A stretch of DNA of 44,311 nucleotides from a virus. Every line of letters begins with the position of its first letter. The stretch's first letter is position 1. Positions 395 to 24,890 of this stretch are shown here, in pieces. Both the position numbers and the translations under genes were made by a program. The stretch lies in the IMG/VR virus record IMGVR_UViG_3300045988_112757. One strand, 5' to 3'. The notes under the pieces are model-generated. The model ran no database searches and was not told the origin of the DNA. It was given only the letters and a program-made list of their open reading frames with translations.

Positions 395-757
395 TTAGTT
401 CTCTACCGGCTCCTCCACCCGGAACCCGCGGCCCCGACGGGGACTGCGCAACATGCGACATTCGAAATCCGTACTGAACACCTCTACCGAGAACAGGCAC
501 AGCAGAACCGCGGCCCCGATGCGTCGGGTCATCTCGGACACGTTGAGCGTGATGCCGAAATTCTGCGTGAAATACCAGGTAACCAATGCCTGCAAGGTCC
601 GCTTCGTCCCCGTCTTGTCGTAGATGCTCTGGAGGTGGTTGGCTACGCATTGGTAGATCACGTTCATCCGATCTGCGATCTCGCGGGCCGAATAGCCCAA
701 TACGACGAGGTTCATCACCTCACGCTCGCGTTTGCTCAGTATGGCGTCAGTTTTCAT
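395..757 (-). CDS. LuxR/GerE-type HTH transcription regulator with a C-terminal transmembrane helix
   Basis: 120 aa. LSKREREVMNLVVLGYSAREIADRMNVIYQCVANHLQSIYDKTG matches the LuxR C-terminal HTH pattern. A hydrophobic segment RRIGAAVLLCLFSVEVF follows. Confidence 0.85.
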   Translation of the reverse strand: MKTDAILSKREREVMNLVVLGYSAREIADRMNVIYQCVANHLQSIYDKTGTKRTLQALVTWYFTQNFGITLNVSEMTRRIGAAVLLCLFSVEVFSTDFECRMLRSPRRGRGFRVEEPVEN

Positions 758-4281: not shown

Positions 4282-4304
4282 ACCCAAAGTGTAGAATAAT
4301 TCAC

Positions 4305-4343
4305 TACCTTTGCGCGTTATTTGCACGGAAAATGTTATATTTG
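4305..4343 (+). promoter_or_regulatory. Tandem -7 boxes TACCTTTG (4305-4312) and TATATTTG (4336-4343)
   Basis: Both match TAnnTTTG upstream of the ATG at 4370. The -33 elements are weak. Confidence 0.45.
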
Positions 4344-4369
4344 TAACAAAGAACCACTACTACAACGAC

Positions 4370-4990
4370 ATGACAACGATAGAGATAATAGGAACGATTG
4401 TTACGACGGCAATAGCTGTCGGCGGTTCTATATGGGCTGTATTAGCTAAAATATTCAAGTTAGGCAAAGTTATGCAACACTTGGACGAGTTCGAAAATCG
4501 GGTAACATCCGATTTGGCGGCGATACAGAACAGATTGGATAAGTTGCCGTGTGCATATCACCATGACGATATTACGAAAATGAAATCCATCCTCATTCAG
4601 AAATACCCGACATCTGCGACGATATTCTCTATCAAGATGAGCCCCCGAAAACTGAATGACCTCGGGGCAAAACTATATGCCGACATTAACGGAGGCAAGT
4701 TCATCGCAAAGAATAAAAGCGCTTTATTTGAATTTATCACCAATTCAGCCCCGCGGGTTCCGCTCGATGTCGAGCAAGCCGCCCTGTTGGCTTGCACCTC
4801 CATGGTGAACACTCCGGCATTCAATGACATGAAGAACTATATATACAACGCTGCAACAATAGAGCTGCCGGACGGATACAAATATGACGTATCAATATCG
4901 GATGTATGCTTCGTGTTAAGTATCCCTTTGCGCGATATGTATCTGGAAGCACACCCGGAAATAAACACAAAGGATAACGATAACAAATAG
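4370..4990 (+). CDS. N-terminally membrane-anchored protein (206 aa), unknown function; moron
   Basis: First ATG of the track ORF, which starts at a TTG inside the promoter. TM segment IIGTIVTTAIAVGGSIWAVLAKI. Confidence 0.7.
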   Translation: MTTIEIIGTIVTTAIAVGGSIWAVLAKIFKLGKVMQHLDEFENRVTSDLAAIQNRLDKLPCAYHHDDITKMKSILIQKYPTSATIFSIKMSPRKLNDLGAKLYADINGGKFIAKNKSALFEFITNSAPRVPLDVEQAALLACTSMVNTPAFNDMKNYIYNAATIELPDGYKYDVSISDVCFVLSIPLRDMYLEAHPEINTKDNDNK

Positions 4991-5002
4991 CGATAACACC
5001 AA

Positions 5003-5137
5003 ACCCCATCGATCCCCTGGCCACAAGCCCGGGGATTTTTTGTACATATTGAACAATAAATCGCCCTGAAGCAGACTTACATCCTAAGAGAAACACAAAC
5101 ATTTTGAACAATTCACCCCATCAATCCCCTGGCCACA
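5003..5137. repeat. 23-nt direct repeat pair (5003-5025 and 5115-5137, 22/23 identical)
   Basis: accccatcgatcccctggccaca versus accccatcaatcccctggccaca. A second short repeat, ttgaacaat, lies at 5049-5057 and 5104-5112. Confidence 0.8.
5012..5041 (+). terminator. Rho-independent terminator
   Basis: Stem ATCCCCtGGC / GCCcGGGGAT (9 bp with one mismatch) followed by TTTTTT. Confidence 0.7.
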
Positions 5138-5166
5138 AAAAAATATGAAAATTTTTCGCCGAACTC

Positions 5167-5223
5167 TTGCATAATGTGCCGAGAGTTGGCTCCTTTGCAT
5201 CGTAAGGCTATGAAGATATAGCC
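5167..5223 (+). promoter_or_regulatory. Late promoter A (TTG 5167-5169, N20, CTCCTTTG 5190-5197) plus 5' hairpin (5206-5223)
   Basis: Part of a 71-nt block that is 51/71 identical to 18998-19068. Hairpin is GGCTAT-gaagat-ATAGCC. Confidence 0.55.
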
Positions 5224-5303
5224 CACGGACAAGACAAACGGTAGCATCCGCGAATCTTAACGACGAAAGGACACGTTGTTGGTAGTAGGTTTCCTGGGAA
5301 CGA

Positions 5304-5341
5304 GGGTCTGTGGCTATTCATCCGGCCGCAGACCCTTTTTT
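5304..5341 (+). terminator. Strong intrinsic terminator in the late-operon leader, 3 nt before the terS ATG
   Basis: 11-bp stem GGGTCTGTGGC/GCCGCAGACCC (one G-U pair), 10-nt loop, TTTTTT at 5336-5341. Confidence 0.8.
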
Positions 5342-5343
5342 CT

Positions 5344-5853
5344 ATGGCAAAGAGAACGGAAGGAATCAAGACGACAACCGACAGCAAGCCCACCCGTAAA
5401 GTGGGCCGCCCTCGTGCATATACCCCCGAAGCGCTTGAAGCCAAGTTTGAAGAGTATGTCGAATGGGTGAAAGCGAATCCGCGATACAGCAACAAGGTAT
5501 TGGCCGACGGTTCTATTATTCCCGTACCTTATGAACGCCCATTGACATTATCCGGCTTTGCGGTGTTCGCCGGAATCATCCCGGAAACATTCAGAGAATA
5601 CGAGAAGCTCGATGAGTTTTCCGTCGTGTGTGCACGCGTGCGCGCGCGAATCGAATCCGATCAGTTGGAGGGTGCTATGTGTGAGCAGTACAACCCGACG
5701 ATTGCGTCGCGTGTTCTGCATCTTGCCGACCGCCAGGACGTGACAACCAACGGCAAGGAGATAACGGCCGCAATACAGCCTATTTCCGTGGTCCTCGATC
5801 CCGAAGCTGCCAAGATCATCCAGTCCATCGGCAAAATGACAGTAAAGGAATGA
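5344..5853 (+). CDS. terS: Terminase small subunit
   Basis: 169 aa. N-terminal KVGRPRAYTPEALEAKFEEYVEW is the common small-terminase HTH pattern. It sits directly upstream of, and coupled to, the large subunit. Confidence 0.85.
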   Translation: MAKRTEGIKTTTDSKPTRKVGRPRAYTPEALEAKFEEYVEWVKANPRYSNKVLADGSIIPVPYERPLTLSGFAVFAGIIPETFREYEKLDEFSVVCARVRARIESDQLEGAMCEQYNPTIASRVLHLADRQDVTTNGKEITAAIQPISVVLDPEAAKIIQSIGKMTVKE

Positions 5854-7085
5854 CGCCCGATCCCGTAACATACAGAGGCAAGACCTACAAAGTCAAAATG
5901 TACCTCTACCAGCTATACGCCGGGAGCGGCGCCGTCGTCCGTATCTTCGACGAGGGAAGTTCCCGATCCGGAAAGACTTTCGACACGGCGGACTTTCTGT
6001 ATGACATCTGCGCATCATCGTCCGTACCTCTTAAAATATACTGTTATCGGGCCACGCTTCAAGATTGCAAGGAAAAGACGCTGGACGACTTCCGCAAGAA
6101 GCTGCAACTACGCGGCGTATACGATCCCGATTGTATGCGTGGCGAAAACATTCTCCCTGAATATCGCATCAAGGATAGCGTGATTCGTTTCCGGGGGCTC
6201 GACAAAATGGATGTCAAAGAGGGCCACGACTGCGACATTGTATATTTCAACGAGATGCTCGACGGTGTAAGCCGTGCGCAATTCGACAATATCACCATGC
6301 GTTGCACGCGGATGGTCATCGGTGACTGGAATCCAAAATACACGGAGCATTGGGCGTTCCATATGGAGGGTGCCCCGGATACTATTTTCACGCACACGAC
6401 GTACAAGGATAATCCCTTCTGCCCGGCGGGGGTTCGCCGCACAATCGAGGGATACGAACCCACACCCGAGAATATCGCCGCCGGAACTGCCGACGAATGG
6501 CGCTGGGAAGTATACGGCCTCGGAGTACGTGCCGCGCAGGAGGGGCTGATATTCCCCGACATCGACTGGATCGACGAATTCCCCGAAGACATCGAACGCG
6601 TTGTATTGGGCCTCGACTTCGGATTCACAGCAGACCCCACGGCCTGCGTACGTGTCGGATTCCGTGCCCCGAACCATCTTTATTTGCAGGAGCTGATATA
6701 TCAGCCTATCGCCGACGCTTCGAAATTGTATGCAGCGCTTTCGCCGCACTTCACAAACGGAGTATCCCGATGCTATGCAGATAGCGCCGACAAATATGCC
6801 AAATCCCCCGAAAGCATGATAACCGCAATGCGCATTAAAGGGCTTACGGTCATCCCCGTGCGGAAATACCCGGGGTCTGTCATGGACGGCATCACGGTCA
6901 TGAAAGGATGCAAGATACACTGCGTGCGTTCGCGCAACATGCAGATAGAAGCAAACTCGTACGTGTGGGAGACGGTGAACGGCATCGCCATAAACTACCC
7001 GCACGACAAATTCAACCATCTATGGGACGCTTCCATATATGCCGTTCAGTCTGAATTCAAGAACCTTATTCAAATAGCTGCATAA
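5850..7085 (+). CDS. terL: Terminase large subunit
   Basis: 411 aa. Walker A-like GSSRSGKT. ATGA overlap with terS. Size and position are typical. Confidence 0.9.
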   Translation: MTPDPVTYRGKTYKVKMYLYQLYAGSGAVVRIFDEGSSRSGKTFDTADFLYDICASSSVPLKIYCYRATLQDCKEKTLDDFRKKLQLRGVYDPDCMRGENILPEYRIKDSVIRFRGLDKMDVKEGHDCDIVYFNEMLDGVSRAQFDNITMRCTRMVIGDWNPKYTEHWAFHMEGAPDTIFTHTTYKDNPFCPAGVRRTIEGYEPTPENIAAGTADEWRWEVYGLGVRAAQEGLIFPDIDWIDEFPEDIERVVLGLDFGFTADPTACVRVGFRAPNHLYLQELIYQPIADASKLYAALSPHFTNGVSRCYADSADKYAKSPESMITAMRIKGLTVIPVRKYPGSVMDGITVMKGCKIHCVRSRNMQIEANSYVWETVNGIAINYPHDKFNHLWDASIYAVQSEFKNLIQIAA

Positions 7086-8323
7086 TGAATCTATTCGGCT
7101 ACGAAATACGCAGGAAAAGCAATAATACAGCCTCAAATTTGCCGGCATCGACATTGAGCTACATCGGCGTACCTCCGGTATTTCAGGGATCAACTGAAAC
7201 CGTGGGAACGATCGACACCAGGGGCAAAGCGGGACAAGCCAAAGCATACGCACTTTGCTCGCCGCTGATGTCTGTGATCTCGAAGAAATGCGCGGCAATT
7301 AAGAACCTACGTCTTGCAGCCACCACGGAAGACGGTGAAGATATCGAACGACCGGACGCCGTGCGGACTATATCGCACCCTAATAGCGTGCAAGGCATCG
7401 CGGACTTCGTGGCATACATCGAGGCCATGACGCAGATTTTCGGCAAAGCCTATATCGTACGCATGGAATCGGTGGGGCTCCCGGGGGCTTTCGAGCTGTT
7501 CGTCGTTCCCAATCTTTGCGTCACGGAAAATGCCGCAATATCTCCGGCGTTATCGTTCATGCCCGATGCGGACATCGTGGATTACACGGTGACCATTTGC
7601 GGGTCTTCGATGAAGATAGCCAAAGAAGATATGTTCATCGTGAGGGATGCCTCTTATGATCTCAATGCTTGCGGCGGCAACATCTCCCGAATGGTATCAT
7701 TACAGAAGCCGGTGAATACTTTCGTGGCATCCTACGAAGCGGTGCATGAACTGATGGTCAACCGCGGTATGCTGGCTATTATCTCGCTGACATCCGGAAG
7801 CGGCGATATTATCCGGGATTCTCGGCTGCCGGAAACGGAATCGGAGAAGAACAACATACAACAGGCATTCAGAAAGTATGGCATCCGGGCCGATCAATTC
7901 AAATACGCGATCACGTCCATGAATGCTGCCGTAAGTCCGGTATCGTCAACGATTACCGATCTGGGACTGACAGACGTACAGAAAGCCTGCAAGAAAGAAA
8001 TCGCGGACATCTACCAAGTGCCGAGCGTGCTGCTCGACGTAGAGGGTTCAACGTACGCCAACGCCAAAGAAGCGAAAACGATATTATATAACGACGCGAT
8101 AATCCCCGAGGCAAATAATATATTCTCCGTGCTCAACAGGATATATGGCTTTGAGGATTTCAAGGTGATGCCCTACTACGATCATCTTGAACTCTTCCAA
8201 GAATCTAAGCGCGAACAGGCGGCGGGCATGACCAATCTCGTAAATGCCCTGAATAACGCCGTGTCCGGCGGTCTGATGACCACGGAGCAGGCTAAAACAG
8301 AACTTTTGAAATATATCGTATAA
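7085..8323 (+). CDS. Portal protein
   Basis: 412 aa. TAATG overlap with terL. Lies between terminase and prohead protease. Confidence 0.8.
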   Translation: MNLFGYEIRRKSNNTASNLPASTLSYIGVPPVFQGSTETVGTIDTRGKAGQAKAYALCSPLMSVISKKCAAIKNLRLAATTEDGEDIERPDAVRTISHPNSVQGIADFVAYIEAMTQIFGKAYIVRMESVGLPGAFELFVVPNLCVTENAAISPALSFMPDADIVDYTVTICGSSMKIAKEDMFIVRDASYDLNACGGNISRMVSLQKPVNTFVASYEAVHELMVNRGMLAIISLTSGSGDIIRDSRLPETESEKNNIQQAFRKYGIRADQFKYAITSMNAAVSPVSSTITDLGLTDVQKACKKEIADIYQVPSVLLDVEGSTYANAKEAKTILYNDAIIPEANNIFSVLNRIYGFEDFKVMPYYDHLELFQESKREQAAGMTNLVNALNNAVSGGLMTTEQAKTELLKYIV

Positions 8324-8324
8324 C

Positions 8325-9026
8325 ATGAACTTATCTCAGCAAATAGAAGCACGCCGGGCGGCAATGGGCAACACTTGCCGCAAAGAGTTCGCCGTGACAA
8401 AAGCGGACATTGCGAACGAAGACGAGCATATCATTCTCGTGAAGTTCGCCAATTTCGGTAACAAAGACAGCGCGGGCGATATTCTTATCAAAGGATGCTT
8501 CGCCAAGTCCATCAACGACAGGGGCCCGGGATCGGCCACAAACCGCAAAATCGCGTTCGTATGGCAACATGATTTCGCCGACCCTATCGGCCGGATACTG
8601 TCTATCGAAGAGCGCGAAGACGGCGCATATGCAGAAGTTAAGCTGAGCAACTTCGACGCGGTGCCGAATGCAAAGCGCGCGTGGTTCCAGCTCAAAGACG
8701 GCGATATTAATCAGTTCTCGTTCGGATTCAATTACGTATGGGACAAAATGGAATATGACGAAGCCCTCGACGCGTTCATCGTTAAGGAAGTCGTATTGCA
8801 TGAAATATCCGTCGTTACCGCCGGAGCCAACGAGGAAACGGCATTCGTCGGTGCTGTGAAGAGTTTACCGGACGCCATCAAGGTTATGAGCGATGCTCTC
8901 AATGTGGCGTCATTGGAGGAGAAAATGAAGATCAAAAAGCAAATCATCGAGACATTGAACGCAGCCGAGCCGGAGAAACCACTCACTGAAAACATGTTCG
9001 GGAAAATAGGTTCACATATCAATTAA
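8325..9026 (+). CDS. Prohead serine protease (HK97 family)
   Basis: 233 aa. KFANFGNKDSAGDILIKGCF ... VWQHD...PIG follows the HK97 prohead protease pattern. Position between portal and capsid fits. Confidence 0.85.
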   Translation: MNLSQQIEARRAAMGNTCRKEFAVTKADIANEDEHIILVKFANFGNKDSAGDILIKGCFAKSINDRGPGSATNRKIAFVWQHDFADPIGRILSIEEREDGAYAEVKLSNFDAVPNAKRAWFQLKDGDINQFSFGFNYVWDKMEYDEALDAFIVKEVVLHEISVVTAGANEETAFVGAVKSLPDAIKVMSDALNVASLEEKMKIKKQIIETLNAAEPEKPLTENMFGKIGSHIN

Positions 9027-9045
9027 CCAAAAAACACAAAGAAGA

Positions 9046-10347
9046 ATGGAGATTAAATCATTTGTGCTTCCCGCTGGCGTAGAGTTCAGCGAGGACGAGA
9101 AAAAGGGCCTGAACGCGCTCGGAGATTATATCAAAGGGCAGTTCGAGGAGATGGTCGCAGGCATCAAGTCACAGAACGAGATCGTCGAGGCTGTCAAGGA
9201 GGAGTTCGGGAAACTCGGGCTGTCGCCGGAGAAGATCGAAAAACTGGAGGGCGCGCTTAAAGCCCAGGGCGTCGAGATCGCCACGATGAAGAAAGGCACC
9301 CCCAAGCAGGAGGGACACAAAACGCTGGTCGCCGCGATGGAAGAGGTGCTGAAATCGGAAGAGTTCGCCGCCGCATATAAGGATATGCGGAACGGACGGG
9401 GGAGACTCTCGACGGGCGAGTTCGCGCTCAAACTCGACACGTCGGCCGTGACGAACGAAGACCCCAACCGCACCGTGCTGACGACGAAGATTTACGCAGA
9501 CGCCAGCCCCCGCAATGCGTTCGTGCAACTCTTCACGCGCATCAATGTGCCCGACGACAAGAACCGCATCATGTACAACGATGCTTCCTACACCGACGGC
9601 ACCGGGTATGCAGAGGAGATGACCAAGCACACCAATACCGACACCGCCACGCTTCAGGGCAAATACCGCGAGCTGTCGAAACTGGGGGCCGTGCTGCCGT
9701 TCTCGGCTGAAAGCGCTGAGGATTTCGGATACTTCCTCGCGTGGGCTCAGACCAAAGCCCAGGAGGGCATCGCCGCCAAACTCGATTCTCTGCTGTGGGA
9801 CGGTGACGGCGTGGATGCCTCCAAGCCCAAACACATCTACGGACTGAAAACATCCGGCGTTACGGCATTCAATGCAACGACGGCGGGTGTGGCAGCCAGC
9901 GTGTCGGCGCCGAACATCGCCGACCTGATCCTCGCTATGAAAACGCAGGCAAAGGTCGAGACCAACGATTCGATGGCTCCGAATTACGTGCTGATGAACT
10001 ACGCCACCGAGTTCAAGATGCGCACGCTGAAGAACACCCTCGGCGACTACATCACGGTGCTGCCCAATGGGGCCTTGTCGGTGCACGGCATGACGATTAT
10101 CCCGACCCCGAAACTCTCGGCCTCGGAGCTCGTCGTGCTCGATTCCACGACGCTCCAACTGCACGACAAGCGCAATATCACTATGGAGATCGAGCGCGTT
10201 CCGGAGACGGATTCGTATCGTCTGTGGCTGTGGTATCGCGGACAGGCCCTCGTTACGCGGCCGGATATGAAGGCGAATATCTATGTCGCCGACATCAACA
10301 CCGCTCTGGCCGCCATCGAGAAAGCAACAGCAGGACCGACCGAGTAA
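9046..10347 (+). CDS. Major capsid protein (HK97-like) with N-terminal coiled-coil delta region
   Basis: 433 aa. Position after the protease. The charged helical N-terminus is typical of a cleaved scaffold domain. Confidence 0.85.
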   Translation: MEIKSFVLPAGVEFSEDEKKGLNALGDYIKGQFEEMVAGIKSQNEIVEAVKEEFGKLGLSPEKIEKLEGALKAQGVEIATMKKGTPKQEGHKTLVAAMEEVLKSEEFAAAYKDMRNGRGRLSTGEFALKLDTSAVTNEDPNRTVLTTKIYADASPRNAFVQLFTRINVPDDKNRIMYNDASYTDGTGYAEEMTKHTNTDTATLQGKYRELSKLGAVLPFSAESAEDFGYFLAWAQTKAQEGIAAKLDSLLWDGDGVDASKPKHIYGLKTSGVTAFNATTAGVAASVSAPNIADLILAMKTQAKVETNDSMAPNYVLMNYATEFKMRTLKNTLGDYITVLPNGALSVHGMTIIPTPKLSASELVVLDSTTLQLHDKRNITMEIERVPETDSYRLWLWYRGQALVTRPDMKANIYVADINTALAAIEKATAGPTE

Positions 10348-10350
10348 CCC

Positions 10351-10548
10351 ATGAAAGCGAAAGATGAAGCAGCTATGACACGCGCCCCCGTTAGGCGCGG
10401 TCGTCGCGCCCTTAAAGCCAACGTCCTGCGCGTCGAAGTCATTAGAGCGCATGACGGGATCAACAAGGGCGAAATACTCATCAAATCGCGGGCAACTGCG
10501 GAAATGATGATTGCCAAAGGGTTCTATAAAAAGGCCCTGGAGGAGTAA
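10351..10548 (+). CDS. Small basic hypothetical protein (65 aa)
   Basis: ATG 4 nt after the capsid stop. Confidence 0.55.
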   Translation: MKAKDEAAMTRAPVRRGRRALKANVLRVEVIRAHDGINKGEILIKSRATAEMMIAKGFYKKALEE

Positions 10549-10555
10549 CCGGATA

Positions 10556-10582
10556 GGGGCGGCAACACGCCGCCCCTTCTTC
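10556..10582 (+). terminator. Terminator-like hairpin after the capsid block (possible attenuator)
   Basis: 8-bp GC stem GGGGCGGC/GCCGCCCC, 5-nt loop, followed by TTCTTC, which is an imperfect U tract. Confidence 0.5.
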
Positions 10583-10594
10583 AAACAAAATAAC

Positions 10595-11074
10595 ATGATC
10601 TTAGACGAGCGATATTTCACCTATCCCGAGACATATATTGCGGGAATAGAGACCAAGAGCGACGGTAAACCCGCCGGACCTGCCCCCAAAATCATAAGCG
10701 ACATCCAGGCATATATCGCCAAATACGAACCTCGGTTTCTGCGAATGCTTCTGGGGCCGGATGTCGCCGGCAATATTGAGGATTACCCAGCTATTGTGGC
10801 GCTGCTGGCCCAACCGGACGAGGGAACATCCGTAATTGCCAAGTATATCTATTTCTACTATTCGCGCGACCATATGACATTCAACACCGTTGCCGGGGAA
10901 AAGCTGAAGAACACCGAAAGCAGCACCCGAACATCTCCGACACATCGGCTCGTCCGCGTGTGGAACGATATGGTAGACGAATGCCGAGAGATCATCCGCA
11001 TCGTTGACAATGTTAAGCTGTGTCCGGACTTTTACGCAGAGATATTCGAACCGATCAATACTTACAACCTATGA
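10595..11074 (+). CDS. Virion-module hypothetical protein (159 aa)
   Basis: First ATG of track ORF 10511..11074, after the hairpin. Confidence 0.7.
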   Translation: MILDERYFTYPETYIAGIETKSDGKPAGPAPKIISDIQAYIAKYEPRFLRMLLGPDVAGNIEDYPAIVALLAQPDEGTSVIAKYIYFYYSRDHMTFNTVAGEKLKNTESSTRTSPTHRLVRVWNDMVDECREIIRIVDNVKLCPDFYAEIFEPINTYNL

Positions 11075-11730
11075 AGATAACCCCCAAAGATACGGTTAAT
11101 GATATTGTGATGCGCAACCGTGCATTATTCAGCATGGGTACCGAACGTATCGTAAAAGCCATACAAGGCCTTCCGGAGCCGGAGTTCGTGCCTATGAAAC
11201 GCCGAATGTGGTTCGACAAACGGCTGCCCGTGCGTGACATTGCCGACATCACTATGGGCGAACTGAACGCCATAGAAGCCCGAAAACCGTCGTACGAATA
11301 TTTTTGCATCGTGCTCGGTGTGATGCTCGGGCTCACGAAATTCAACCGCATAGGCGTTGACGGCAATCCGGATTGGAACGCGGGGTTCAGCATAGACGAG
11401 GAGCAAATCGGACGCCTCCGGTTCATCCGTGCCCAGCGCTATTTCATTGCCATACAAAAAGGGTTGGAAGGTATCGGCAAATCGTGGAAAAAGCTGGAAA
11501 TGCCTCTCACGGCCGCCGAGATGAAAGCGCGTGTCAAGCGACCCAATCGCGGACTTGTAGCCGTATGCCGGAAATACTGCCAGATCATGAACGGCGCCGT
11601 TGACATGAATAAAGCATGGAATACGCCGTGGGCGACAGTATACGAAGCATTCGAGGCATGCAAGTGCGACAACATGGAACAGCGGGCCATCTATGAAGCG
11701 AACAAATCTAACGGGAGACGGAGACGATGA
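11071..11730 (+). CDS. Virion-module hypothetical protein (219 aa)
   Basis: ATGA overlap with the previous gene. Confidence 0.7.
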   Translation: MKITPKDTVNDIVMRNRALFSMGTERIVKAIQGLPEPEFVPMKRRMWFDKRLPVRDIADITMGELNAIEARKPSYEYFCIVLGVMLGLTKFNRIGVDGNPDWNAGFSIDEEQIGRLRFIRAQRYFIAIQKGLEGIGKSWKKLEMPLTAAEMKARVKRPNRGLVAVCRKYCQIMNGAVDMNKAWNTPWATVYEAFEACKCDNMEQRAIYEANKSNGRRRR

Positions 11731-12143
11731 AAAAAAGCATTAACGAGATATTCAGAGAATGCGCCGAAGCGGAGGGACTGTGCTCCTATATGTACGCCCG
11801 GATAGCTGAAGCTAATTATCTGATGGATGATGTCAAGCAATACCCCGTATTGCTGCGGCAGTTCAACGAGACGATTTCCGAAACACGGATGTCGGACACG
11901 CGGCGCCGGACGACGACGCTCTATTTCTGCGACACCCTCGGGAAAGCGGAGCCGGACACGGAGACCGAGGTGCAGCCGATCGTCGAAAAGATGGAAGAAC
12001 GCGCCTTTGCATTTATCAACCGGATGCGGTCGATGGGTATAGAGGTCGAGCTTGTGGCCAACGCGACGCCCTTTTACGGCAAATTCGACGTGTTGGTGGC
12101 GGGCGTAACCCTAAGCGCTATTATGACCTATAACATCTGCTGA
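11727..12143 (+). CDS. Virion-module hypothetical protein (138 aa)
   Basis: ATGA overlap with the previous gene. Confidence 0.7.
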   Translation: MKKSINEIFRECAEAEGLCSYMYARIAEANYLMDDVKQYPVLLRQFNETISETRMSDTRRRTTTLYFCDTLGKAEPDTETEVQPIVEKMEERAFAFINRMRSMGIEVELVANATPFYGKFDVLVAGVTLSAIMTYNIC

Positions 12144-12144
12144 T

Positions 12145-12708
12145 ATGCCCACCATCCGGCAAATAGAAGAGGTGTTCAGCCCCGAGCGGATCATCACCAT
12201 CTGCGAGGACGAGTTCGGTCCGCTGGCCGAACAGATCGCCTTTAACATAATGACCAAAAGGACCAACAGCGGCGCCGATGTCAACGCTTTGGGGCTTCCG
12301 GAGGAAACGACCGGAGCGACGGCCGAAAGCCTTAAAACCATCCATGAATCTACGAACGGCGGACTTACGGTCTCATTTGTCGGACGCAAAGGCATCAAGA
12401 ATATCGACGAGGGAAGTTCCCCGCAAGACGTGCAGGAGGAGTTTGGCAGTTTCGGGGCCTTTCTGAATGCCATCGAGCGGTGGGCGCGAGCCAAAGAATC
12501 GCGGTGGAATCTCGAACCAAGATCGATAAATGCGTATGGCGTTGCTTCGAGCGTCTGGGATCACGGAAACGTACTCCATCAGGAGGGCGGCGGAACGGAG
12601 ATCATGAAAGACCTGCTGCCCGAAGTTGTCGAAAGGATCAGCGAAAGAATCACGGAGGAGCTCGACACCTCCATTTATAAACTATTAGATGCGACGATAG
12701 ATCTATGA
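12145..12708 (+). CDS. Virion-module hypothetical protein (187 aa)
   Basis: Starts 2 nt after the previous stop. Confidence 0.7.
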   Translation: MPTIRQIEEVFSPERIITICEDEFGPLAEQIAFNIMTKRTNSGADVNALGLPEETTGATAESLKTIHESTNGGLTVSFVGRKGIKNIDEGSSPQDVQEEFGSFGAFLNAIERWARAKESRWNLEPRSINAYGVASSVWDHGNVLHQEGGGTEIMKDLLPEVVERISERITEELDTSIYKLLDATIDL

Positions 12709-13715
12709 AAACTATTTGGGGAGGGAATAATTCAATCACGGTGCCTAATACCTTTTTCTGCACCAAAAGCCGATACGCATACGTCAAGGTGGCATTAAAA
12801 GAGGCCGTGCGCAATCAAGACGTAACCCTCGAAGTTTACGACGTGGCCAACGAGGATGCCAGCAAGATAACCATTGCCCGCAAAACCGATGATCGGGGCG
12901 TCGCAATATTCCCCATCGGCGCGGTGTGCGAGTCTCTGGTAAAGGAGTACGGTGAAGGTATTGTCGTGATGTTCAACGCCTCCTATCCGGGCGGAGGTGT
13001 CGGATATTCGTCGCGTCCGATTGTCGGATATGCCGACTACGAAATCAAAGCCCTCAATGTGGAAGCCAAAGGCGACACAAACGCCACCAACTACCCGGCG
13101 GCGAAAAAGATAGTCATATATCCTTATGGAATGTTTCGTCAAACCGTATTCGTCCCGGCGTCCAATGCCGTTACATTGAGTGATCCCGAACGGCAATTAA
13201 CATTCGCCCAAGAGATTGGGCCATATATTGAATTCGACCCTGTGTCTGTAGAAGATTTGGATTATACGCCGACAGCTTTGATGGCTTCTATACTATATGG
13301 CGCAGGGGACGAGATGTCTATATCTATCCCCGTAAAAATTGACCTGTGCACAAACGGCGTATTCCTCAAATGGATCGACAAATCGGGCATCCCGTATGTA
13401 TACCGATGGACCCCCGAGATGACGGCCGACGAAATGTCCGTAGATTCCACCTATACACAACTCGATGAAACCCTCCAGCCTTTCGAGGTTCAGAACAAGA
13501 CCATGACCAAGCGATACACGTTGCACAGTCGAATCGTCGAGCGGGATATATACGAGATGTGCAAAACCATCATCGGAAGCCAGGCGGTGTGGACGTGGGA
13601 TACTACCCTTTCCGATTGGGTGCGCTGCTCTATGGAGGACAGCGAAGCCGAAGACAGCGGAGCACCGATGCAAGACCTGGTTATTGAAGTCGTAAAACGC
13701 GAGTACAACCTATGA
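12705..13715 (+). CDS. Tail-module protein (336 aa), function not assignable
   Basis: ATGA overlap. Precedes the 930-aa protein. Confidence 0.75.
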   Translation: MKTIWGGNNSITVPNTFFCTKSRYAYVKVALKEAVRNQDVTLEVYDVANEDASKITIARKTDDRGVAIFPIGAVCESLVKEYGEGIVVMFNASYPGGGVGYSSRPIVGYADYEIKALNVEAKGDTNATNYPAAKKIVIYPYGMFRQTVFVPASNAVTLSDPERQLTFAQEIGPYIEFDPVSVEDLDYTPTALMASILYGAGDEMSISIPVKIDLCTNGVFLKWIDKSGIPYVYRWTPEMTADEMSVDSTYTQLDETLQPFEVQNKTMTKRYTLHSRIVERDIYEMCKTIIGSQAVWTWDTTLSDWVRCSMEDSEAEDSGAPMQDLVIEVVKREYNL

Positions 13716-16504
13716 CGACCTACGAACTTTATATCAACGATATTCTGTGCGACCTATCGAGTGACGAGGTCATAACCCTGCTTTATCAAAGCCCGATCTT
13801 TTCGAGCCTCGACAGCATTCAGTCGAACAGGTCCTATAACATCGCGCTGCCTCCCACGCCTGCGAATATGCGGGCTATCGGTCAGGCATCCCGCCCGGAT
13901 GTGGATGCCGACGCTCCCTATGTGCGCCTTCCGGCGGCATTGTATCAGGACGGGGTGCCGCTGTTCACGCAGGGGTTCGCCGTGGTTACGGATATTGCGG
14001 ACACTATCAACGTGACCCTCACGTGGGGCAATGCGGACAATTTTCAGCCTTTGTTCGACGCGAATCTGCGGGATTTGGGGCCCCAGCTGGAGGCCGCCGG
14101 GGAGGATTACATCGAGTGGAACGAGGACTCGGCAATACTCAAAAAGGGATCGGCCCCGAGCGGCGGCTTGGTCAGATATCCGTATGTAGCCTTTTGGGGC
14201 ATAGATTTCGGAATGGGGCTGTCCAATCCCAAATATCTACATCCGGCTATTGATGTGTGGCGGATACTGTACAGCATTCAGCAGGCACACGGAATCACCA
14301 TCGAGGATTACCGGAGGCTGTATGGAACCTTAGAGCTGCCGCCCATTGTGCCGCTGGTATCTAAGAATGGCGACCCTAAATATAATTTCGCCCTAAAAAC
14401 AGGAAGCCTTCATTTAGATGTGAATACCATATCGGGTTCCGTGGGCCTACCAAACACGATATGGGCCAATAAAGGGTACAGCGGCAATGACGTTGACCAA
14501 GCAGGTATCTATAAAACCGAGAACAACAGAATGGTTATAGACGTCTCGGACGTGAATAGCATTCGGTTCGTGTTTACAGGCGGGGGCGTTAGGGATGGTG
14601 CTATCGCCGGGAATAACCCGCGATTCCAAATTATGGCTGGCAAAGACAGCGATACGTTTGATAACTATGTCGTTATATATGATACTGAGGCTACATATAC
14701 GATGTCTGAAATAGATCAGATGTTTGACGTAACTGCATTCGATTATATAGCCATTCGAGTTACAAGATATGAATGGCAGTCCAATACTCAGTCTATAAAT
14801 TCTATTGTAGGCAATATATACATATGGGGCGACTATGATATAGAGGTCATATTCCCAGGACCATTCCCCATCGCCCCCAACCTCCCCGACATATCCCAGG
14901 GCGATTTTATCCTCGCCATGATGAATATGCAGGGATTGTTCGCCTATGCGGACAAAGACAACCCGAACACGATAAAGTTGATAAGCATCGACGACATAAT
15001 CGCCAATGTTCAGAAAAACGACATCATAGACTGGAGCGACCGGGTAATTCTGAATGATATTCACCGGGTGGATATACCCGATGCGTCGGTTTTCACCATT
15101 GATGACCTCGCGCAAAGCAATATTCTCGACTACGACAACGACGACGATGTAAAGACCGACACGCACGGCACCATCACGATCCGGAACGAAAACATCGAGA
15201 AAGAAGCGGAGCTTGTAGAGCTGCCTTTCTCGGCATCGGAAAATGCGACCACGGACGGGGTAAATTGCGCCGTTGTACCGATCTATGAGGATGACGGCAA
15301 AGGCGGTGCCAATTACTCGGAATGTTCGCCGCGTATCTTGGCATGGAAAGACGATCAGACATATAACAGTTCTGCCATCTGTACGGGGCGTTTCGACCCG
15401 TGGATGAAGTTCGGCGGCGATGGAGGTATCGTGAAGACCCGATACGCATCCTATCAGAAAGTCGTTGACCGCCTCCGGATCATCACCGTCCGGGCAAAAC
15501 TCACAGCTCTCGATCTTTATAACCTCGACTATACGAAGCCGGTATATATCGCCCAATTCGGGCAGATATTCGCCATCTACTCGGTCGAAACAGGCGAGGA
15601 TGGCATTTGCGACTGCCAACTGCTGAAATTGAAAGTAGACGGGGTTGTGCCTGCCCACTACTACCTGTATTTGGATGGCCAAAATGCCGACCAAAGCAAG
15701 ACCGACATAACATCTGCCGGAACAACTATTACGTATAGTGTTCAGTCGAACGGTACGCCCTATGTGGTTTCGAAAGACAACCGTTTGACGGTGACGCTTC
15801 AAACTGCCGAAGACGGCACGATGTTGCTCACTATAAAAGTTCCTCAAAACACATCAGACGCAGAAATCAATTACGATCACGTCATTCTTGGTATCAGCGA
15901 AGCCGACCATGTGCGCCGGGAAATAAGCATATCGCAGAAAGGCAAAGAATACTATCTGACGCTCAATGGGCACAGCTCTGATTTCAGCATTGACGCCACC
16001 GCGGACGGGGAAGTGATCGAGCTGACCTGCGCGACGAACGGAACGCCCCGGATTCAGACGTTCGAGGGAGACGCCATCGATTCCGTGGACATACAGGGCG
16101 ACATCATAAGCATTGCCACGATTCTCAACCCATCGGCAGTTTCGAGAGAGGCGATCGTCGTCGTGGAACTGGAGGAAGCCCCCGCCATAAGCATCACTGT
16201 AACCGTGAAGCAGGCCGCAGCTGTAATCCCTTCCATAGCGTTTAGCCCGAACTTGCCGTGGAGCTCGTCGGCTCAAACCGTGACCATTCTAAACAATGGG
16301 AATGTACCGCTCAGCATCGTCTCTGTGCCCTCTTTTATTAGCAACGCTGGGCTCCCGATCAGCCTTGCGCCGAGGGCCCAAACCACGCGCCGTATTAGTG
16401 CCAACAATACAGGGGTGCCGCGTTTGGGGACCATTTCTATGGAGTATTCGGATGCTTTGGGCCAAATAAAGACCTATAATGTGAGTGTTAAACAAAATGC
16501 TTAA
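13712..16504 (+). CDS. Large tail / host-interaction protein (930 aa) with three C-terminal Ig/BACON-like repeats
   Basis: ATGA overlap. The C-terminal third holds three modules of about 90-100 aa, each ending in a similar strand: REISISQKG, ISITVTVKQAA and TYNVSVKQNA. Confidence 0.85.
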   Translation: MTTYELYINDILCDLSSDEVITLLYQSPIFSSLDSIQSNRSYNIALPPTPANMRAIGQASRPDVDADAPYVRLPAALYQDGVPLFTQGFAVVTDIADTINVTLTWGNADNFQPLFDANLRDLGPQLEAAGEDYIEWNEDSAILKKGSAPSGGLVRYPYVAFWGIDFGMGLSNPKYLHPAIDVWRILYSIQQAHGITIEDYRRLYGTLELPPIVPLVSKNGDPKYNFALKTGSLHLDVNTISGSVGLPNTIWANKGYSGNDVDQAGIYKTENNRMVIDVSDVNSIRFVFTGGGVRDGAIAGNNPRFQIMAGKDSDTFDNYVVIYDTEATYTMSEIDQMFDVTAFDYIAIRVTRYEWQSNTQSINSIVGNIYIWGDYDIEVIFPGPFPIAPNLPDISQGDFILAMMNMQGLFAYADKDNPNTIKLISIDDIIANVQKNDIIDWSDRVILNDIHRVDIPDASVFTIDDLAQSNILDYDNDDDVKTDTHGTITIRNENIEKEAELVELPFSASENATTDGVNCAVVPIYEDDGKGGANYSECSPRILAWKDDQTYNSSAICTGRFDPWMKFGGDGGIVKTRYASYQKVVDRLRIITVRAKLTALDLYNLDYTKPVYIAQFGQIFAIYSVETGEDGICDCQLLKLKVDGVVPAHYYLYLDGQNADQSKTDITSAGTTITYSVQSNGTPYVVSKDNRLTVTLQTAEDGTMLLTIKVPQNTSDAEINYDHVILGISEADHVRREISISQKGKEYYLTLNGHSSDFSIDATADGEVIELTCATNGTPRIQTFEGDAIDSVDIQGDIISIATILNPSAVSREAIVVVELEEAPAISITVTVKQAAAVIPSIAFSPNLPWSSSAQTVTILNNGNVPLSIVSVPSFISNAGLPISLAPRAQTTRRISANNTGVPRLGTISMEYSDALGQIKTYNVSVKQNA

Positions 16505-16559
16505 TTGCAACTATAAATATAATCGGATTATATTAACCATTTAACCCATATGAAGAGAT

Positions 16560-18998
16560 ATGGCACAAGACACTATCGACAAGATCATTAATATCCAGTT
16601 CAGATATTCGGATTTAATCAAAGGATGGGAGGCCGCCTCGGCGGCTATTGACACCGCAAAAGTCAAACTACAAGAGTTTAAGAAAGCAGGTGATTCCGAA
16701 GGCGTTGCCAAGCAAACCCAGATTATCAAAGCATTGCGGACCGAGATGTCGGCCTACACCCGGGAGATTCAGGCAAATATTCGAGAAGAAATCAACCTGG
16801 ACGGAAGCGTTGAGAAACTCCGGGCGGGGGTTCAAGCCCTTACGGCTCAATACAACAAGCTAAGCCGTGAAGAGCGGAACAATGCAGATGTAGGCGGCAA
16901 ATTGAGCTCTCAAATTCGTGAGATGCAGACCGAGTTGAACGAAGCAAACGCATCATTGTTGAACTTTCGGGATAATGTCGGGAACTATGCGAGCGCAGCT
17001 AAAGGTTTTACCCCGCTTACGTTCCAAGTGCAGCAGTTGGCCCGAGAGATGCCATCACTTACGATGTCATTGCAACAGTTCTTTCTGGCGATTTCAAACA
17101 ACCTCCCGATGTTTGCGGACGAATTGACCCGAGCAAGGATGGCCAACAAAGCGCTGCGAGCGGAGGGCAAGCCGACAGTTTCGGTGTTCAAACAAGTGCT
17201 TTCGGCTATTGGTTCCTGGCAAACGGCATTGGTCGTGGGTATCACATTGCTGACGGCCTACGGGAAAGAGATTGGGGCGTGGGTGAAAGGTCTGTTTACG
17301 GCCAAAGAAGCGGCGCTATCTATGGCCGAGGCACAAGATAAGGTGAATGACGCTTTGAAGAAAGACGGGTACGGCATCGGTGAACAAATCGCCAAAGTGA
17401 AAGAATTGCAAATGCAATGGAGGGCTTTAGGGGACGATCTAAAGGCGCGAAAGCAGTTCATTGTCGATAATAAAGACGCATTCGACGATCTCGGGGTACA
17501 GGTAAACAATGTTAATGATGCAGAGAAATTACTTGTTGAACGTACCGATGATTTCATTCAATCTTTGCAATTGAGGGCGCAGGCTGCTGCGGCGCAGAAA
17601 TTAGCATCTGAGCAATATGAAAAATACATAAAAGTTGTCGCAGAAACGGAGGATGATCTTGCCAAATCGGAACGATTAAGAGATTATTATATAAAACAAA
17701 AAGCAGAACGAGAAAAGATGTATGGCGGCCTAACGGCCGATATATATCAACGCCAGATACGAGCTTCGCAGGCAATGATAAACCAGCATCAAGCTGAAAT
17801 AGATAAAATAAACGAACAGCGAAATGCGGCATTGGATACAGGCAGTATTTATACAAAATTGCAAGCGAAATATGAAAAACAGGCCCATGAAATCCTTGAC
17901 GCCGCAGGCATTGAGGAGGCCGCCAATGATAAAGTAAATGAGAAAATAAAGAAAGGCATAACACTTGCGGAGCAGCGAGCCCGAGCAGTAAAAGCCGCGC
18001 GGGAATCCATCGTAAAAGACATTGCGGCAATCGGTAATGCTTTGGATAAAGAGTTGGCCGATGCTTTCAAGGATGGAAACAATGATATTACCAAAGGGCT
18101 CGAATCACAGTTAAAAGAACAAACCCGGAAGTATCAAAACAGACTTACTGAAGCCGCATTGTCGGGCGGAAGTTTAGGGGTTGCAAAGGAAACAGTTTCA
18201 ATAGCCAAAGAGCAATTAAGGCAGTTGGATGATATAGCCAGCAATGAAGAGCTTATCAACCGGTTAGGCTGGGACGATGTGGAGCTGCAACGCCAACGGC
18301 TCGACCTCCGTATGCAGATAGCGAACGCCGAACAAAGCATCGCCCGGGAGCAGGACCGCACAGCGCAAGAGGCAGCACGGCAGACGGCGCAAACTCTCAG
18401 CGGATTATCAGGCATGACAGGGGCCTTTTCTGCAATGTTTGAAGCACTGGGCGGAGAGGGCGAACGTTATGCGGAATTTGCGAAAACATTGGCCGTATTT
18501 CAGGTTGTTTTGGCACAGGCCGAAGCCATAGCCAACGCCGTGGCCTCAGCATCTAAAGCACCGTGGTTCATGCTACCGATAACTATTGCGTCAAGTATCG
18601 CTACGGTAGTCGCAGCCATTGCGCAAGCTACACAAATAACAGATTCGGCACAAACGCCTAAATACGCCTCCGGCGGTCTTGTCACGGGCCCGGGCACCGG
18701 AACTTCGGACAGCATCCCCGCAATGTTATCCAACGGCGAAGCCGTGATGACGGCCCAGGCTGTCAACGACTGGGGCGCAATGCTCTCAGCCATGAACGTG
18801 GCAAGCGGCGGAAACGCCATCCAAGTATCGAATCTTCCCCAGCGCAACGACGGAATGAAGGGGATGGAGCGCATGATGGAACGGGTCCTGATGAATATGC
18901 CGGCGCCCATTGTTTCGGTGGTTGACATCAACAAGGGGCAGAAGCGGGTCAAGGTTCAAAACAACCTCGGAAAATTAGGACGGAAAAAATACGAATAA
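16560..18998 (+). CDS. Tape-measure-like protein (812 aa); an internal ejection-protein role is not excluded
   Basis: Long coiled-coil-rich sequence, a hydrophobic block LAVFQVVLAQAEAIANAVA...ITIASSIATVVAAIAQA, and the C-terminal motif GGLVTGPGTGTSDSIPAMLSNGEAVM seen in tape-measure or minor-tail proteins. Confidence 0.8.
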   Translation: MAQDTIDKIINIQFRYSDLIKGWEAASAAIDTAKVKLQEFKKAGDSEGVAKQTQIIKALRTEMSAYTREIQANIREEINLDGSVEKLRAGVQALTAQYNKLSREERNNADVGGKLSSQIREMQTELNEANASLLNFRDNVGNYASAAKGFTPLTFQVQQLAREMPSLTMSLQQFFLAISNNLPMFADELTRARMANKALRAEGKPTVSVFKQVLSAIGSWQTALVVGITLLTAYGKEIGAWVKGLFTAKEAALSMAEAQDKVNDALKKDGYGIGEQIAKVKELQMQWRALGDDLKARKQFIVDNKDAFDDLGVQVNNVNDAEKLLVERTDDFIQSLQLRAQAAAAQKLASEQYEKYIKVVAETEDDLAKSERLRDYYIKQKAEREKMYGGLTADIYQRQIRASQAMINQHQAEIDKINEQRNAALDTGSIYTKLQAKYEKQAHEILDAAGIEEAANDKVNEKIKKGITLAEQRARAVKAARESIVKDIAAIGNALDKELADAFKDGNNDITKGLESQLKEQTRKYQNRLTEAALSGGSLGVAKETVSIAKEQLRQLDDIASNEELINRLGWDDVELQRQRLDLRMQIANAEQSIAREQDRTAQEAARQTAQTLSGLSGMTGAFSAMFEALGGEGERYAEFAKTLAVFQVVLAQAEAIANAVASASKAPWFMLPITIASSIATVVAAIAQATQITDSAQTPKYASGGLVTGPGTGTSDSIPAMLSNGEAVMTAQAVNDWGAMLSAMNVASGGNAIQVSNLPQRNDGMKGMERMMERVLMNMPAPIVSVVDINKGQKRVKVQNNLGKLGRKKYE

Positions 18999-19002
18999 TT
19001 CT

Positions 19003-19059
19003 TGCACAATGTGCCGAAGGTTAGCACCTTTGACACGAACGCTTATGAGGATATAAGCT
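19003..19059 (+). promoter_or_regulatory. Late promoter B (TTG 19003-19005, N20, CACCTTTG 19026-19033) plus 5' hairpin (19042-19059)
   Basis: Second copy of the 71-nt late element. Hairpin is GCTTAT-gaggat-ATAAGC. Confidence 0.55.
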
Positions 19060-19159
19060 GCGGAACAATGTACGAAACGACACATACATATCGCCACCCT
19101 TTCGTGGCCGCATCTGCCATAAGCGCGAAGTGCTTTGTCTAACTTAACACATCAAACTA

Positions 19160-24481: not shown

Positions 24482-24539
24482 CCCTTCCGGGGTGGGGCGG
24501 ATTTCCGCCCCGCCCTTAATTCTTAAAAACCGCTACGAT

Positions 24540-24890
24540 ATGCTATTCGCCAAAAAAGAATATCACAATATGGATATGATCCGCACATCATCCAAAGATG
24601 CCCTGAAACGATCACTAATGCAGATGTATCAAGGTGATGTGGCCACAATGGAACGAATGTATGACTTTTACATGAAAGACATGGAAAAGGTCCCCGATTT
24701 CGATCCGGTGCCGCCCTCTATCCTCCAGCAGGCAAAGACAACCATCGGAGAACTGTTCGGATGGGCTGACGCCAATCAGGACAAATTAGTGGGCGCTTAC
24801 AACCTATTCAGAGCCATCAGAAGCGGAGAACCGATAAGTTCCGTAAGCGCCGCCCCCATTGCAGATGTTCCACCATTACCGAAATTATAA
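24540..24890 (+). CDS. Hypothetical protein (116 aa)
   Basis: First ATG of track ORF 24492..24890, downstream of a GC hairpin at 24489-24516. Confidence 0.6.
   Translation: MLFAKKEYHNMDMIRTSSKDALKRSLMQMYQGDVATMERMYDFYMKDMEKVPDFDPVPPSILQQAKTTIGELFGWADANQDKLVGAYNLFRAIRSGEPISSVSAAPIADVPPLPKL

Follow-up and report, generated by a model that had tools for sequence, protein, structure and literature searches.

The IMG/VR virus record IMGVR_UViG_3300045988_112757 holds 44,311 nt of DNA from an uncultivated gut phage of Bacteroidota (the window), in which the packaging, head, and tail genes are read from the plus strand behind a promoter that we call late promoter A (5165–5197). This promoter is followed by a leader of ~140 nt that contains, in order, a 5'-terminal hairpin (P1), a conserved linker, a weak P2 element, the P3 hairpin, and a hairpin that has the form of an intrinsic terminator and runs into a U6 tract (T, 5302–5341). 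The first gene of the late operon, terS (5344–5853, plus strand), encodes the small terminase subunit (Pfam GP3_package, 2.8e-18; phrog_606, 6e-24), and its stop codon overlaps the start of terL (5850). The portal, prohead protease, and major head genes follow, including the major capsid gene at 9046–10347. All genes from 5344 to 9026 are joined by stop/start overlaps of 1–4 nt or by a 1-nt gap, and a search of the operon downstream of T found no promoter motif; for these two reasons, promoter A appears to be the only entry point. An earlier reading of the DNA made without database searches (the sequence-only reading) had also named promoter A as the sole recognizable promoter of this operon, and we found neither the space nor a motif for another one between T and the terS ATG. 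The same reading had given the operon 18 kb, a length that we correct to 13.7 kb (5344 to 18998). Operon A then runs directly into late promoter B and a further 7.5 kb, operon B, which includes a holin gene (21690–22199).

The hairpin at 5302–5341 shows all the sequence features expected of a strong intrinsic terminator, and it is conserved rather than a product of chance. Direct reading of the sequence gave a core stem in which GGGTCTGTGGC (5304–5314) pairs with GCCGCAGACCC (5325–5335) over 11 bp, including one G·U, followed by a T6 run at 5336–5341 and the terS ATG at 5344, 3 nt past T. These coordinates are those of the sequence-only reading, and its description of a strong intrinsic terminator before terS also held. 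In RNAfold, the stem lengthened to 14 bp (5302–5315 with 5324–5337), with eight G-C pairs and a loop of 8 nt, and the folding energy was -25.9 kcal/mol, compared to -9.1 +/- 2.5 kcal/mol for dinucleotide shuffles (z = -6.7). The gene-end terminators upstream fold less stably (-15.1 kcal/mol at 4255 and -13.9 kcal/mol at 5015), and a custom scan of both strands of the 44-kb window ranked T first among all sites with a hairpin plus a T run. Sites of -20 kcal/mol or lower occurred 0.2 times per dinucleotide-shuffled window, and the probability of chance placement in one given 180-nt leader was ~4e-4.

Comparison among relatives supports the same structure. In 12 distinct sequences from four lineages, 98.6% of the cells of the T stem were paired, and 4 of 12 pairs showed compensatory changes; the covariation score was 0.400, compared to 0.205 +/- 0.028 for shuffles (0 of 500 as high) and a maximum of 0.157 for slid partners. 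The U tract varies from U5 to U9 across relatives, and the minimum of nucleotide diversity among 36 distinct relatives (0.028) falls on the terminator. A U·G wobble, in the sense of the plus strand, is kept in 10 of the 12 T sequences, and the minus-strand fold of the region is 6.6 kcal/mol weaker (-19.3 kcal/mol) and has no T run. Because of the G·U pairs and the weaker minus-strand fold, we assign the structures of T and P1 to the plus-strand RNA. Termination at T in vivo is what this anatomy alone predicts, and the prediction is strengthened because similar anatomy marks phage gene ends and the ends of validated Bacteroides small RNAs (PMC7366714). Like the Rho-independent terminators of Bacteroides described in that study, and like those at 4255 and 5015, T combines a GC-rich stem with a short loop and a U tract that follows at once; unlike them, it stands not at a gene end but in a 5' leader, 3 nt short of a start codon.

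P1 (5206–5223, plus strand) has the sequence GGCUAU-GAAGAU-AUAGCC and is supported by covariation and by a covariance model. Among 16 distinct sequences, 99% of cells were paired and three of six pairs showed compensatory changes, with a score of 0.607 compared to 0.311 +/- 0.039 for shuffles (0 of 500 as high) and a maximum of 0.226 for slid partners. A U-N-U-G-A signature at the junction between the 5' arm and the loop is invariant. The covariance model, which combined the -7 box with P1, matched the window only at A (57.5 bits) and B (49.1 bits), and RNAalifold recovered P1 and the base of T from nine full leaders. Next comes the conserved linker CACGGACA (5224–5231, plus strand; consensus yRCkGAMA), which is complementary to the segment GUCUGUGG of the T 5' arm. 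Folding and leader alignments then place P3 at 5259–5289 on the plus strand, as AACGACG-AAAGGACA-CGUUGUU followed by a UUGG-UAGUAGG tract. A core of the form GAAAGRAC...UUGUUGG..AGU between P1 and T is common to three of the four leader types described below (A, S, and T3). In a search with Rfam 15, only two tRNAs of the window reached the gathering score, and 4950–5400 gave nothing credible even at E <= 10. These tRNAs lie in the leftward early region (42664–42968, minus strand) and are a tRNA-Gln(TTG) and an 86-nt tRNA-Ser whose anticodon, ACT, is unusual.

Several further observations concern the leader. In both window copies, P1 contains an open reading frame (ORF) of three codons, AUG AAG AUA UAG at 5210–5221 and AUG AGG AUA UAA at 19045–19056. 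The tetQ leader of the Bacteroides element CTnDOT encodes a 3-residue leader peptide, of which this mini-ORF is reminiscent. The (A/G)UG in P1 is invariant across all variants, and the ORF lengths range from 3 to more than 60 codons; we ruled out a leader peptide with ribosome-mediated attenuation, as ORF length and stop position vary and the start codon is buried in P1. Some type-A relatives (L004, L005, and L086) carry a short duplication, GGACACGTTGTAGGACACACGTTGTTGG, within P3, at the equivalent of window positions ~5268–5290, as well as indels in the spacer before T (GGTTTCCTGGGAACGA vs GTTCTTGGAA). MAFFT paired the A-type spacer GGTTTCCTGG with the T 5' arm GGTCTGCTGG of types S and T3, which hints that the A leader may have arisen by partial duplication of a terminator arm.

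Promoter A, TCTTGCATAATGTGCCGAGAGTTGGCTCCTTTG, was identified by motif count, by a block of conservation, and by comparison with the Bacteroidota consensus. The late motif TCTTGCAYAATGTGCCGA (TCTTGCAYAATGTGCCGArrGTTnGCnCCTTTG) occurs in the window only twice, at 5165 (A) and at 19000 (B), where 0.1 copies are expected. Its geometry is CTTG, 20 nt, and C(T/A)CCTTTG, with a -7 box that lacks the consensus TA; promoter A thus consists of a -33-like CTTG, a near-palindrome GCATAATGTGC, and the sub-consensus -7 box CTCCTTTG. Between the -33-like and -7-like boxes lies an 11-bp palindrome, GCACAATGTGC. Promoter B and most relatives carry it in perfect form, and promoter A has a single mismatch. Bacteroidota promoters have the consensus TAnnTTTG at -7 and TTTG at -33 (PMC7366714), and good promoters of the TAnnTTTG type are present elsewhere in the window, for example TACCTTTG at 4294 and 28989. 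From these features, the late promoter is probably an activator-dependent sigma-A promoter. Transcription would start at ~5203–5206, 5–8 nt past the CCTTTG box (5192–5197), giving a leader of ~137–139 nt, in agreement with the ~140 nt of the sequence-only reading, and placing T, a strong terminator by its anatomy, ~105–140 nt past the start site and thus a short distance downstream of the promoter. Direct reading of 5198–5341 found no TAnnTTTG or TTTG motif that could act as a sigma-dependent pause repeat. The conserved late module begins sharply at ~5144: nucleotide diversity among the 36 relatives is 0.3–0.45 upstream of this point and ~0.03–0.10 over the leader and terS.

The DNA just upstream of the module has features of its own. 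The preceding cargo gene (4310–4990) ends in the plus-strand terminator at 5015–5041, CCCTGGCCACAAGCCCGGGG followed by ATTTTTT, and a relative with a T3-type leader (L242) has a homologous terminator at the matching position. Two exact TTGAACAAT boxes, the sole exact copies in the window, lie 55 nt apart upstream of promoter A (5049–5057 and 5104–5112, plus strand) and resemble the promoter half-site TTGCACAAT. They are kept upstream of the T3 late promoter and, as TTTAGRACAAT, in phages of the L354 type, and they may be additional regulator sites. A 24-nt direct repeat, ACCCCATCRATCCCCTGGCCACAA, is present at 5003–5026 and 5115–5138, and its first copy forms the 5' half of the upstream terminator.

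Promoter B (19000–19032, plus strand) is followed by its own copy of P1 (19041–19058; GCUUAU-GAGGAU-AUAAGC), as supported by the motif, covariation, and the covariance model. The rest of leader B contains GCCAC/GTGGC at 19093–19108 and AGCGC-GAA-GTGCT at 19122–19134, the latter followed by TTGTCT. The sequence-only reading had seen only weaker hairpins in this leader, and we likewise found no real terminator there.

The combination of promoter, P1, and T recurs in more than 100 related viral or metagenome loci, which fall into four leader lineages. A search of IMG/VR with TerS returned 80 loci, and in ~40 of these, with TerS 65–98% identical over its full length, the promoter, leader, and terminator are nearly unchanged. 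Scans for the promoter pattern over IMG/VR and metagenomes revealed the same promoter in other phage types. In type A, to which the window belongs, terS comes first and T ends 3 nt before its ATG. In types S (L090, L231, and L270) and S2 (L290), a gene for a scaffold-like protein (phrog_5824), a phrog_9196 gene, and the major capsid gene lie downstream, and T stands ~50 nt upstream of an A-rich start region. In type T3 (~40 loci, e.g., L181 and L242), T stands 5 nt before the ATG of a 92-residue ORF, which is followed by genes for a ParB-like nuclease, a phrog_15125 protein, TerL, and portal. Across the four lineages, the first gene varies and the sequence of T has diverged (U5–9), and the cassette heads a packaging or capsid operon each time. 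In those phages that were found with several copies of the late promoter, T is present on one copy only, the one that heads the capsid/packaging operon, as seen for A and not B in the window and in S-type contigs with three copies.

Other leaders lack some or all of these elements. The late promoter is followed by P1 and no terminator in leader B, in L293 (before a Terminase_2-type terS), in L257, and in L321, and it has neither P1 nor a terminator in L092/L276 and L122/L253. Two loci of another phage lineage, L228 (2289–2407) and L283 (1053–1165), have the same late-type promoter 15 nt upstream of a tRNA-Thr(AGT) gene, again with no P1 and no terminator. A further set of loci (L039–L080; e.g., L039 1200–1500) encodes more distant TerS homologues, which are 72–93% identical from residue 18–20 on, and has no leader; there, terS comes straight after the stop codon of a homologue of the 812-residue tail gene of the window (16560–18998), at the place where promoter B sits in the window, and the gene order differs from that of the window. 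Neither the leader nor the regulator described next had a match when compared with deposited phages. Among species-representative genomes, the promoter pattern had 0 matches and a query with the regulator returned generic LuxR proteins only.

The promoter upstream of the T-bearing leader co-varies with a dedicated and nearly invariant factor of the LuxR/GerE type, the 120-residue product of gene 395–757 (minus strand; Pfam GerE, 3e-11). In a Foldseek comparison, the AlphaFold model of this protein superposed on the DNA-binding domains of NarL, GerE, VraR, and LiaR, with an rmsd of ~1 A over 55–64 residues. First, when the window was compared with an S-type phage (138724), only 395–757 (92%), 762–1019 (98%), 1133–1372, and 1509–1814 were shared at high identity. 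Second, in T3 phages, the 395–757 protein is still 92–94% identical, compared to 31–34% for 762–1019 and 45–90% for the other early genes; the regulator keeps 92–94% identity across lineages whose neighboring genes have fallen to 31–60%. Third, 80 IMG/VR loci with the 395–757 protein separate according to promoter subtype. Where the regulator is >=92% identical (at least 92%; 56 loci), the canonical promoter is found in 48 of 56 and the variant promoter in none; where it is 81–89% identical (24 loci), none has the canonical promoter and 13 of 24 have the variant TTGTTATTAAAATGCCTGCTCCCACCTTTG. Finally, T-like terminators are confined to loci in which the regulator is at least 92% identical. 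The sequence-only reading had listed the genes at 41118, 43292, 23590, and 395 as candidate readthrough factors, and by identity and co-variation with the promoter subtype, 395–757 is clearly the best of these. This protein is likely to be the late activator and probably binds the promoter palindrome.

Past its helix-turn-helix (HTH) domain, the 395–757 protein has a hydrophobic helix (residues 73–89, IGAAVLLCLFSVEVF), which could be a membrane or dimerization helix, and a disordered arginine-rich tail, RMLRSPRRGRGFRVEE, with near-invariant arginines and an RGRGF motif, which could bind RNA or the DNA minor groove. This tail is also present in lineages without P1. The neighboring 85-residue protein (762–1019) was dropped as a T-specific factor, given its 31–34% identity in T3 phages; in a T-less lineage, an ORF of 85 or 91 residues, similar in size to 762–1019, lies directly upstream of the regulator gene. 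In the lineage with the variant promoter (L354–358), the regulator homologue P0027 is named 'response regulator transcription factor [Alistipes putredinis]' at NCBI, and this name is the best clue to the host, which would be of the Alistipes type.

We next consider what T does. Because the operon behind it holds all of the head and tail genes and has no other entry, read-through of T must be substantial in lytic growth. The reading that we favor, at a rough probability of 0.45, is that T is a genuine attenuator and that an antitermination mechanism tied to the promoter or the leader controls its read-through. T would then be a transcriptional gate before the packaging, head, and tail operon: RNA polymerase from the late promoter would by default release a short leader RNA at the U tract, and productive late transcription would require passage of T. 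The co-conserved LuxR-type protein, probably bound at the palindrome, would turn the cassette on, and the likeliest route past T would be a phage-specified antitermination tied to the late promoter and leader, in which nascent P1, the conserved P3/UUGUUGG segment, or both play the part of a nut- or put-like site. The read-through mRNA would probably also translate terS poorly, as would fit a low-copy protein; this suggestion is based on the position of T 3 nt before the ATG in a host that does not rely on Shine-Dalgarno pairing.

The logic of this proposed cassette is closest to that of lambdoid PR'-tR'-Q, and its parts appear unrelated to the textbook ones. In lambdoid phages, a terminator comes directly after the late promoter, antitermination overrides it, and a short RNA is a by-product (6S RNA; StxS in Stx phages) (PMC7547250). 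The window likewise has a strong intrinsic terminator within ~100–200 nt of a late promoter and before late genes, a short terminated leader RNA would be expected, and the conserved palindrome GCACAATGTGC, a candidate binding element, lies between the promoter boxes, where the Q-binding element of lambda lies. In contrast to lambda, the window encodes no Q homologue among ~60 ORFs scanned and has no pause-inducing repeat of the -7 box; the host belongs to the Bacteroidota, whose promoters are of the sigma-ABfr type; the late promoter looks activator-dependent, whereas PR' is constitutive; and T abuts terS rather than lysis genes. As in the lambda N/nut system, a short promoter-proximal hairpin with a conserved purine-rich loop marks the regulon upstream of a terminator. 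The loop of boxB in lambda nutL is GAAGA and that of P1 is GAAGAU, a resemblance by which P1 might be likened to boxB by analogy only. Unlike in N/nut, there is no identified N-like protein and no CGCUCUU-type boxA conserved across lineages, and P1 lies at the very 5' end of the RNA, with a 6-bp stem and a 6-nt loop.

The put RNA of HK022, an antiterminator RNA that acts in cis and needs no factor, offers another parallel, as stem-loops just past the phage promoter would make only the transcripts of that promoter resistant to terminators. A put-like mechanism would account for the conservation of P3/UUGUUGG and for the failure to find a protein factor. P3 is missing from the terminator-less leaders, and the proposed likeness is one of logic. 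A more specific proposal, which is markedly less probable than regulated read-through in general, is that the leader RNA (P1 plus P3/UUGUUGG), either alone in a put-like manner or together with the 395–757 protein, confers terminator resistance on polymerase from the late promoter; it would then be the first antitermination system to be described for Bacteroidota phages and mechanistically new. In a two-part version, the HTH domain of 395–757 would sit on the promoter palindrome and its arginine-rich tail would catch the emerging hairpin, a hybrid of Q-like loading on DNA and N-like loading on RNA that would be homologous to neither.

Several results weigh against regulated antitermination. 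First, the ~60 ORFs scanned, which do not include every small ORF, contain no Q, N, NusG/KOW, or LoaP-type domain, and the one co-conserved factor, 395–757, has an ordinary GerE/NarL DNA-binding fold. Second, the step from a terminator to an antiterminator is weakened because the sub-consensus -7 box suggests dependence on an activator, unlike the constitutive PR' of lambda; as the promoter looks activator-dependent, an activator alone could provide temporal control. Third, P1 is also present on the terminator-less leaders (B, L293, L257, and L321), and it may therefore equally be a 5' stabilizer. Fourth, phages of the related L354–358 lineage, which have a diverged regulator, have no P1 and no T between the promoter and terS, and so the gate is dispensable. 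Finally, a search inside operon A for strong intrinsic terminators, which would call for processive antitermination, found none; it turned up only a GC-rich hairpin at 24489 that lacks a U tract and an end-of-block hairpin at 26694. The former (24489–24516) lies in operon B between genes 24005–24481 and 24492–24890, has 12 bp (10 G-C) and an energy of -27.6 kcal/mol, and is followed by TAATTCTTAA, with no U tract; rather than a canonical terminator, it might be an element for RNA processing or stability.

Two proposals of the sequence-only reading can be judged against this background. It held that late expression probably needs a processive antiterminator or a factor or RNA that remodels the hairpin: the conservation of T does imply that read-through is supplied or tuned in some way, but nothing shows a processive or protein antiterminator. 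It also took the conserved 5' hairpin for the obvious candidate loading site, and P1 is indeed a real covarying RNA with an invariant U..UGA, but one that terminator-less late leaders carry as well.

If no dedicated antiterminator is involved, T could be a constitutively leaky attenuator, passed, after the LuxR-type activator has switched on the late promoter, by a fixed fraction of polymerases or by one that increases with the rate of promoter firing; this is the strongest of the competing explanations, although we consider it clearly less probable than regulated read-through. A leaky T would hold back basal transcription in the lysogenic state and adjust the expression of capsid and packaging genes relative to late operons without a terminator; the short leader RNA, made in abundance, would be either a by-product or a small RNA, like StxS from lambdoid PR'. 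The failure to find antiterminator homologues in the ORFs scanned, the drift of the U tract from 5 to 9 among relatives, and the existence of lineages without T all fit such a stop, and a sub-consensus promoter that co-varies with a conventional DNA-binding activator would supply timing without a second factor. Moreover, short RNAs with Rho-independent ends are validated small RNAs in Bacteroides (PMC7366714) and occur in Stx phages too (PMC7547250). However, a 14-bp hairpin of -26 kcal/mol flush with a U tract is expected to stop most transcripts, which would be costly before the operon for the major capsid protein. A simple leaky stop also leaves unexplained the conservation of P3 and of UUGUUGG..AGUAGG across lineages, and a search within the phage for a complementary trans target of the conserved single-stranded tract, UUGUUGGUAGUAGG, found none.

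Alternatively, the leader could switch T by itself, which we regard as doubtful. In such a scheme, the P1 loop or 3' arm plus the linker, (C)CACGGAC, would pair as an antiterminator with the T 5' arm and loop, GUCUGUGGCUAUUCAUC, and the folding of P1, or a factor on P1 or on the UAG-rich tract, would choose between the two states, in the manner of the PyrR, TRAP, and LicT attenuators. When leaders of types A and T3 were cut before the T 3' arm, the minimum-energy fold used this pairing, and RNAduplex gave cognate energies of -24.5 kcal/mol (z = -3.7) for the majority A variant and -22.4 kcal/mol (z = -3.0) for T3, each equaled by 0.4% of shuffles, with weaker values for non-cognate pairs. One compensatory difference distinguishes CCACGGAC/GUCUGUGG in type A from CAACGGAC/GUCUGUUG in type T3, the P1 and T loops co-vary (GAUGAA/UUCAUC in A vs GAUGGC/GCCGUC in T3), and the pairing survives the natural variants ACAGAC and GCGGAC. 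By contrast, the pairing is marginal for the variant present in the window itself (-18.6 kcal/mol, z = -1.6, equaled by 7% of shuffles) and not significant for type S (-13.0 kcal/mol, z = -0.3); type S2 is out of register, and P1 plus T wins the full-length fold by a wide margin. P1 and the linker are equally conserved on the T-less leaders B, L293, L257, and L321, and neither an evident ligand or trigger nor a matching Rfam family was found. The resemblance to the Bacillus trp/TRAP and pyr/PyrR and the LicT/SacY-RAT systems extends to mutually exclusive leader pairings that overlap the terminator 5' arm and to (U)AG repeats just 5' of T (UAGUAGG in A and S; four UAG repeats in S2). Here, however, the genes under control are those of phage morphogenesis, the phage encodes no protein of the TRAP, PyrR, or CAT-domain kind, and only two of the four lineages give statistical support to the alternative pairing, which is thus a lineage-limited possibility and not the core mechanism.

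It is still less likely that the hairpin acts only after transcription, by throttling translation of the first gene, as an RNase processing or stability element, or as a protective 3' end. Translation initiation in Bacteroidota depends on an unstructured, A/U-rich upstream region and not on Shine-Dalgarno pairing. A hairpin 3–5 nt from the start codon, as in A and T3, would therefore suit such a role, as would the need for low copies of the products of terS, terL, and the portal gene, whose reading frames overlap at their stop and start codons. What is conserved is not closeness to the ATG, however, as the hairpin and U tract of S and S2 lie ~50 nt upstream of an A-rich start, and all four lineages keep a U tract (T5–T9) that a purely structural element would not need. 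The sequence-only reading had added translational control as a second layer, and this fits A and T3, where T abuts the ATG, but not S or S2; T may hold down translation of a low-copy first gene (A and T3) and spare a high-copy one (S and S2). Three further roles were ruled out: a DNA cruciform or protein-binding inverted repeat, as the U·G pairs and compensatory changes fit plus-strand RNA only; a terminator of the upstream gene, which has its own at 5015–5041 with the late promoter in between; and a pac or TerS-binding site, as the hairpin precedes a scaffold-like gene (S and S2) or a 92-residue ORF (T3).

Repeats elsewhere in the window were noted in passing. A 30-nt unit, ATCGTCGAGGTTTCCCAGCTCCGGGCGTTA, is repeated in tandem at both ends (10–128 and 44184–44302). 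Most likely the window is a phage contig that is circular or terminally redundant and was opened inside a single such array, located immediately downstream of the LuxR-type gene; the repeats could be iterons or operators. An 11-nt tandem repeat, TGATTGATCAC, at 37104–37147, in or near gene 36636–37508, could be origin iterons, and an array of 15-nt repeats at 35670–35744 codes for the pentapeptide-repeat part of a DUF5758 protein.

A literature search found no paper on late-gene control in temperate phages of gut Bacteroidota (Alistipes/Bacteroides). In a family of such phages, a covarying hairpin with the shape of a terminator and a U tract is conserved in the late leader of the capsid/packaging operon, and the phage probably must override or tune T to make virions. 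The cassette is compact, well delimited, and widespread: the metagenomic phage contigs that carry it number more than 100 and represent at least four morphogenetic types. Should T be only a leaky stop, it would be an ordinary, if neat, example of attenuation. Should a phage mechanism override it instead, this mechanism would lack homology to Q, N, and the NusG family and would be a new route of read-through for the unusual RNA polymerase of Bacteroidota. Regulated read-through, if true, would also provide a tight and portable on-switch for synthetic biology in Bacteroides, and the ratio of coverage across position 5341 would be a marker of committed lytic growth in gut metatranscriptomes.

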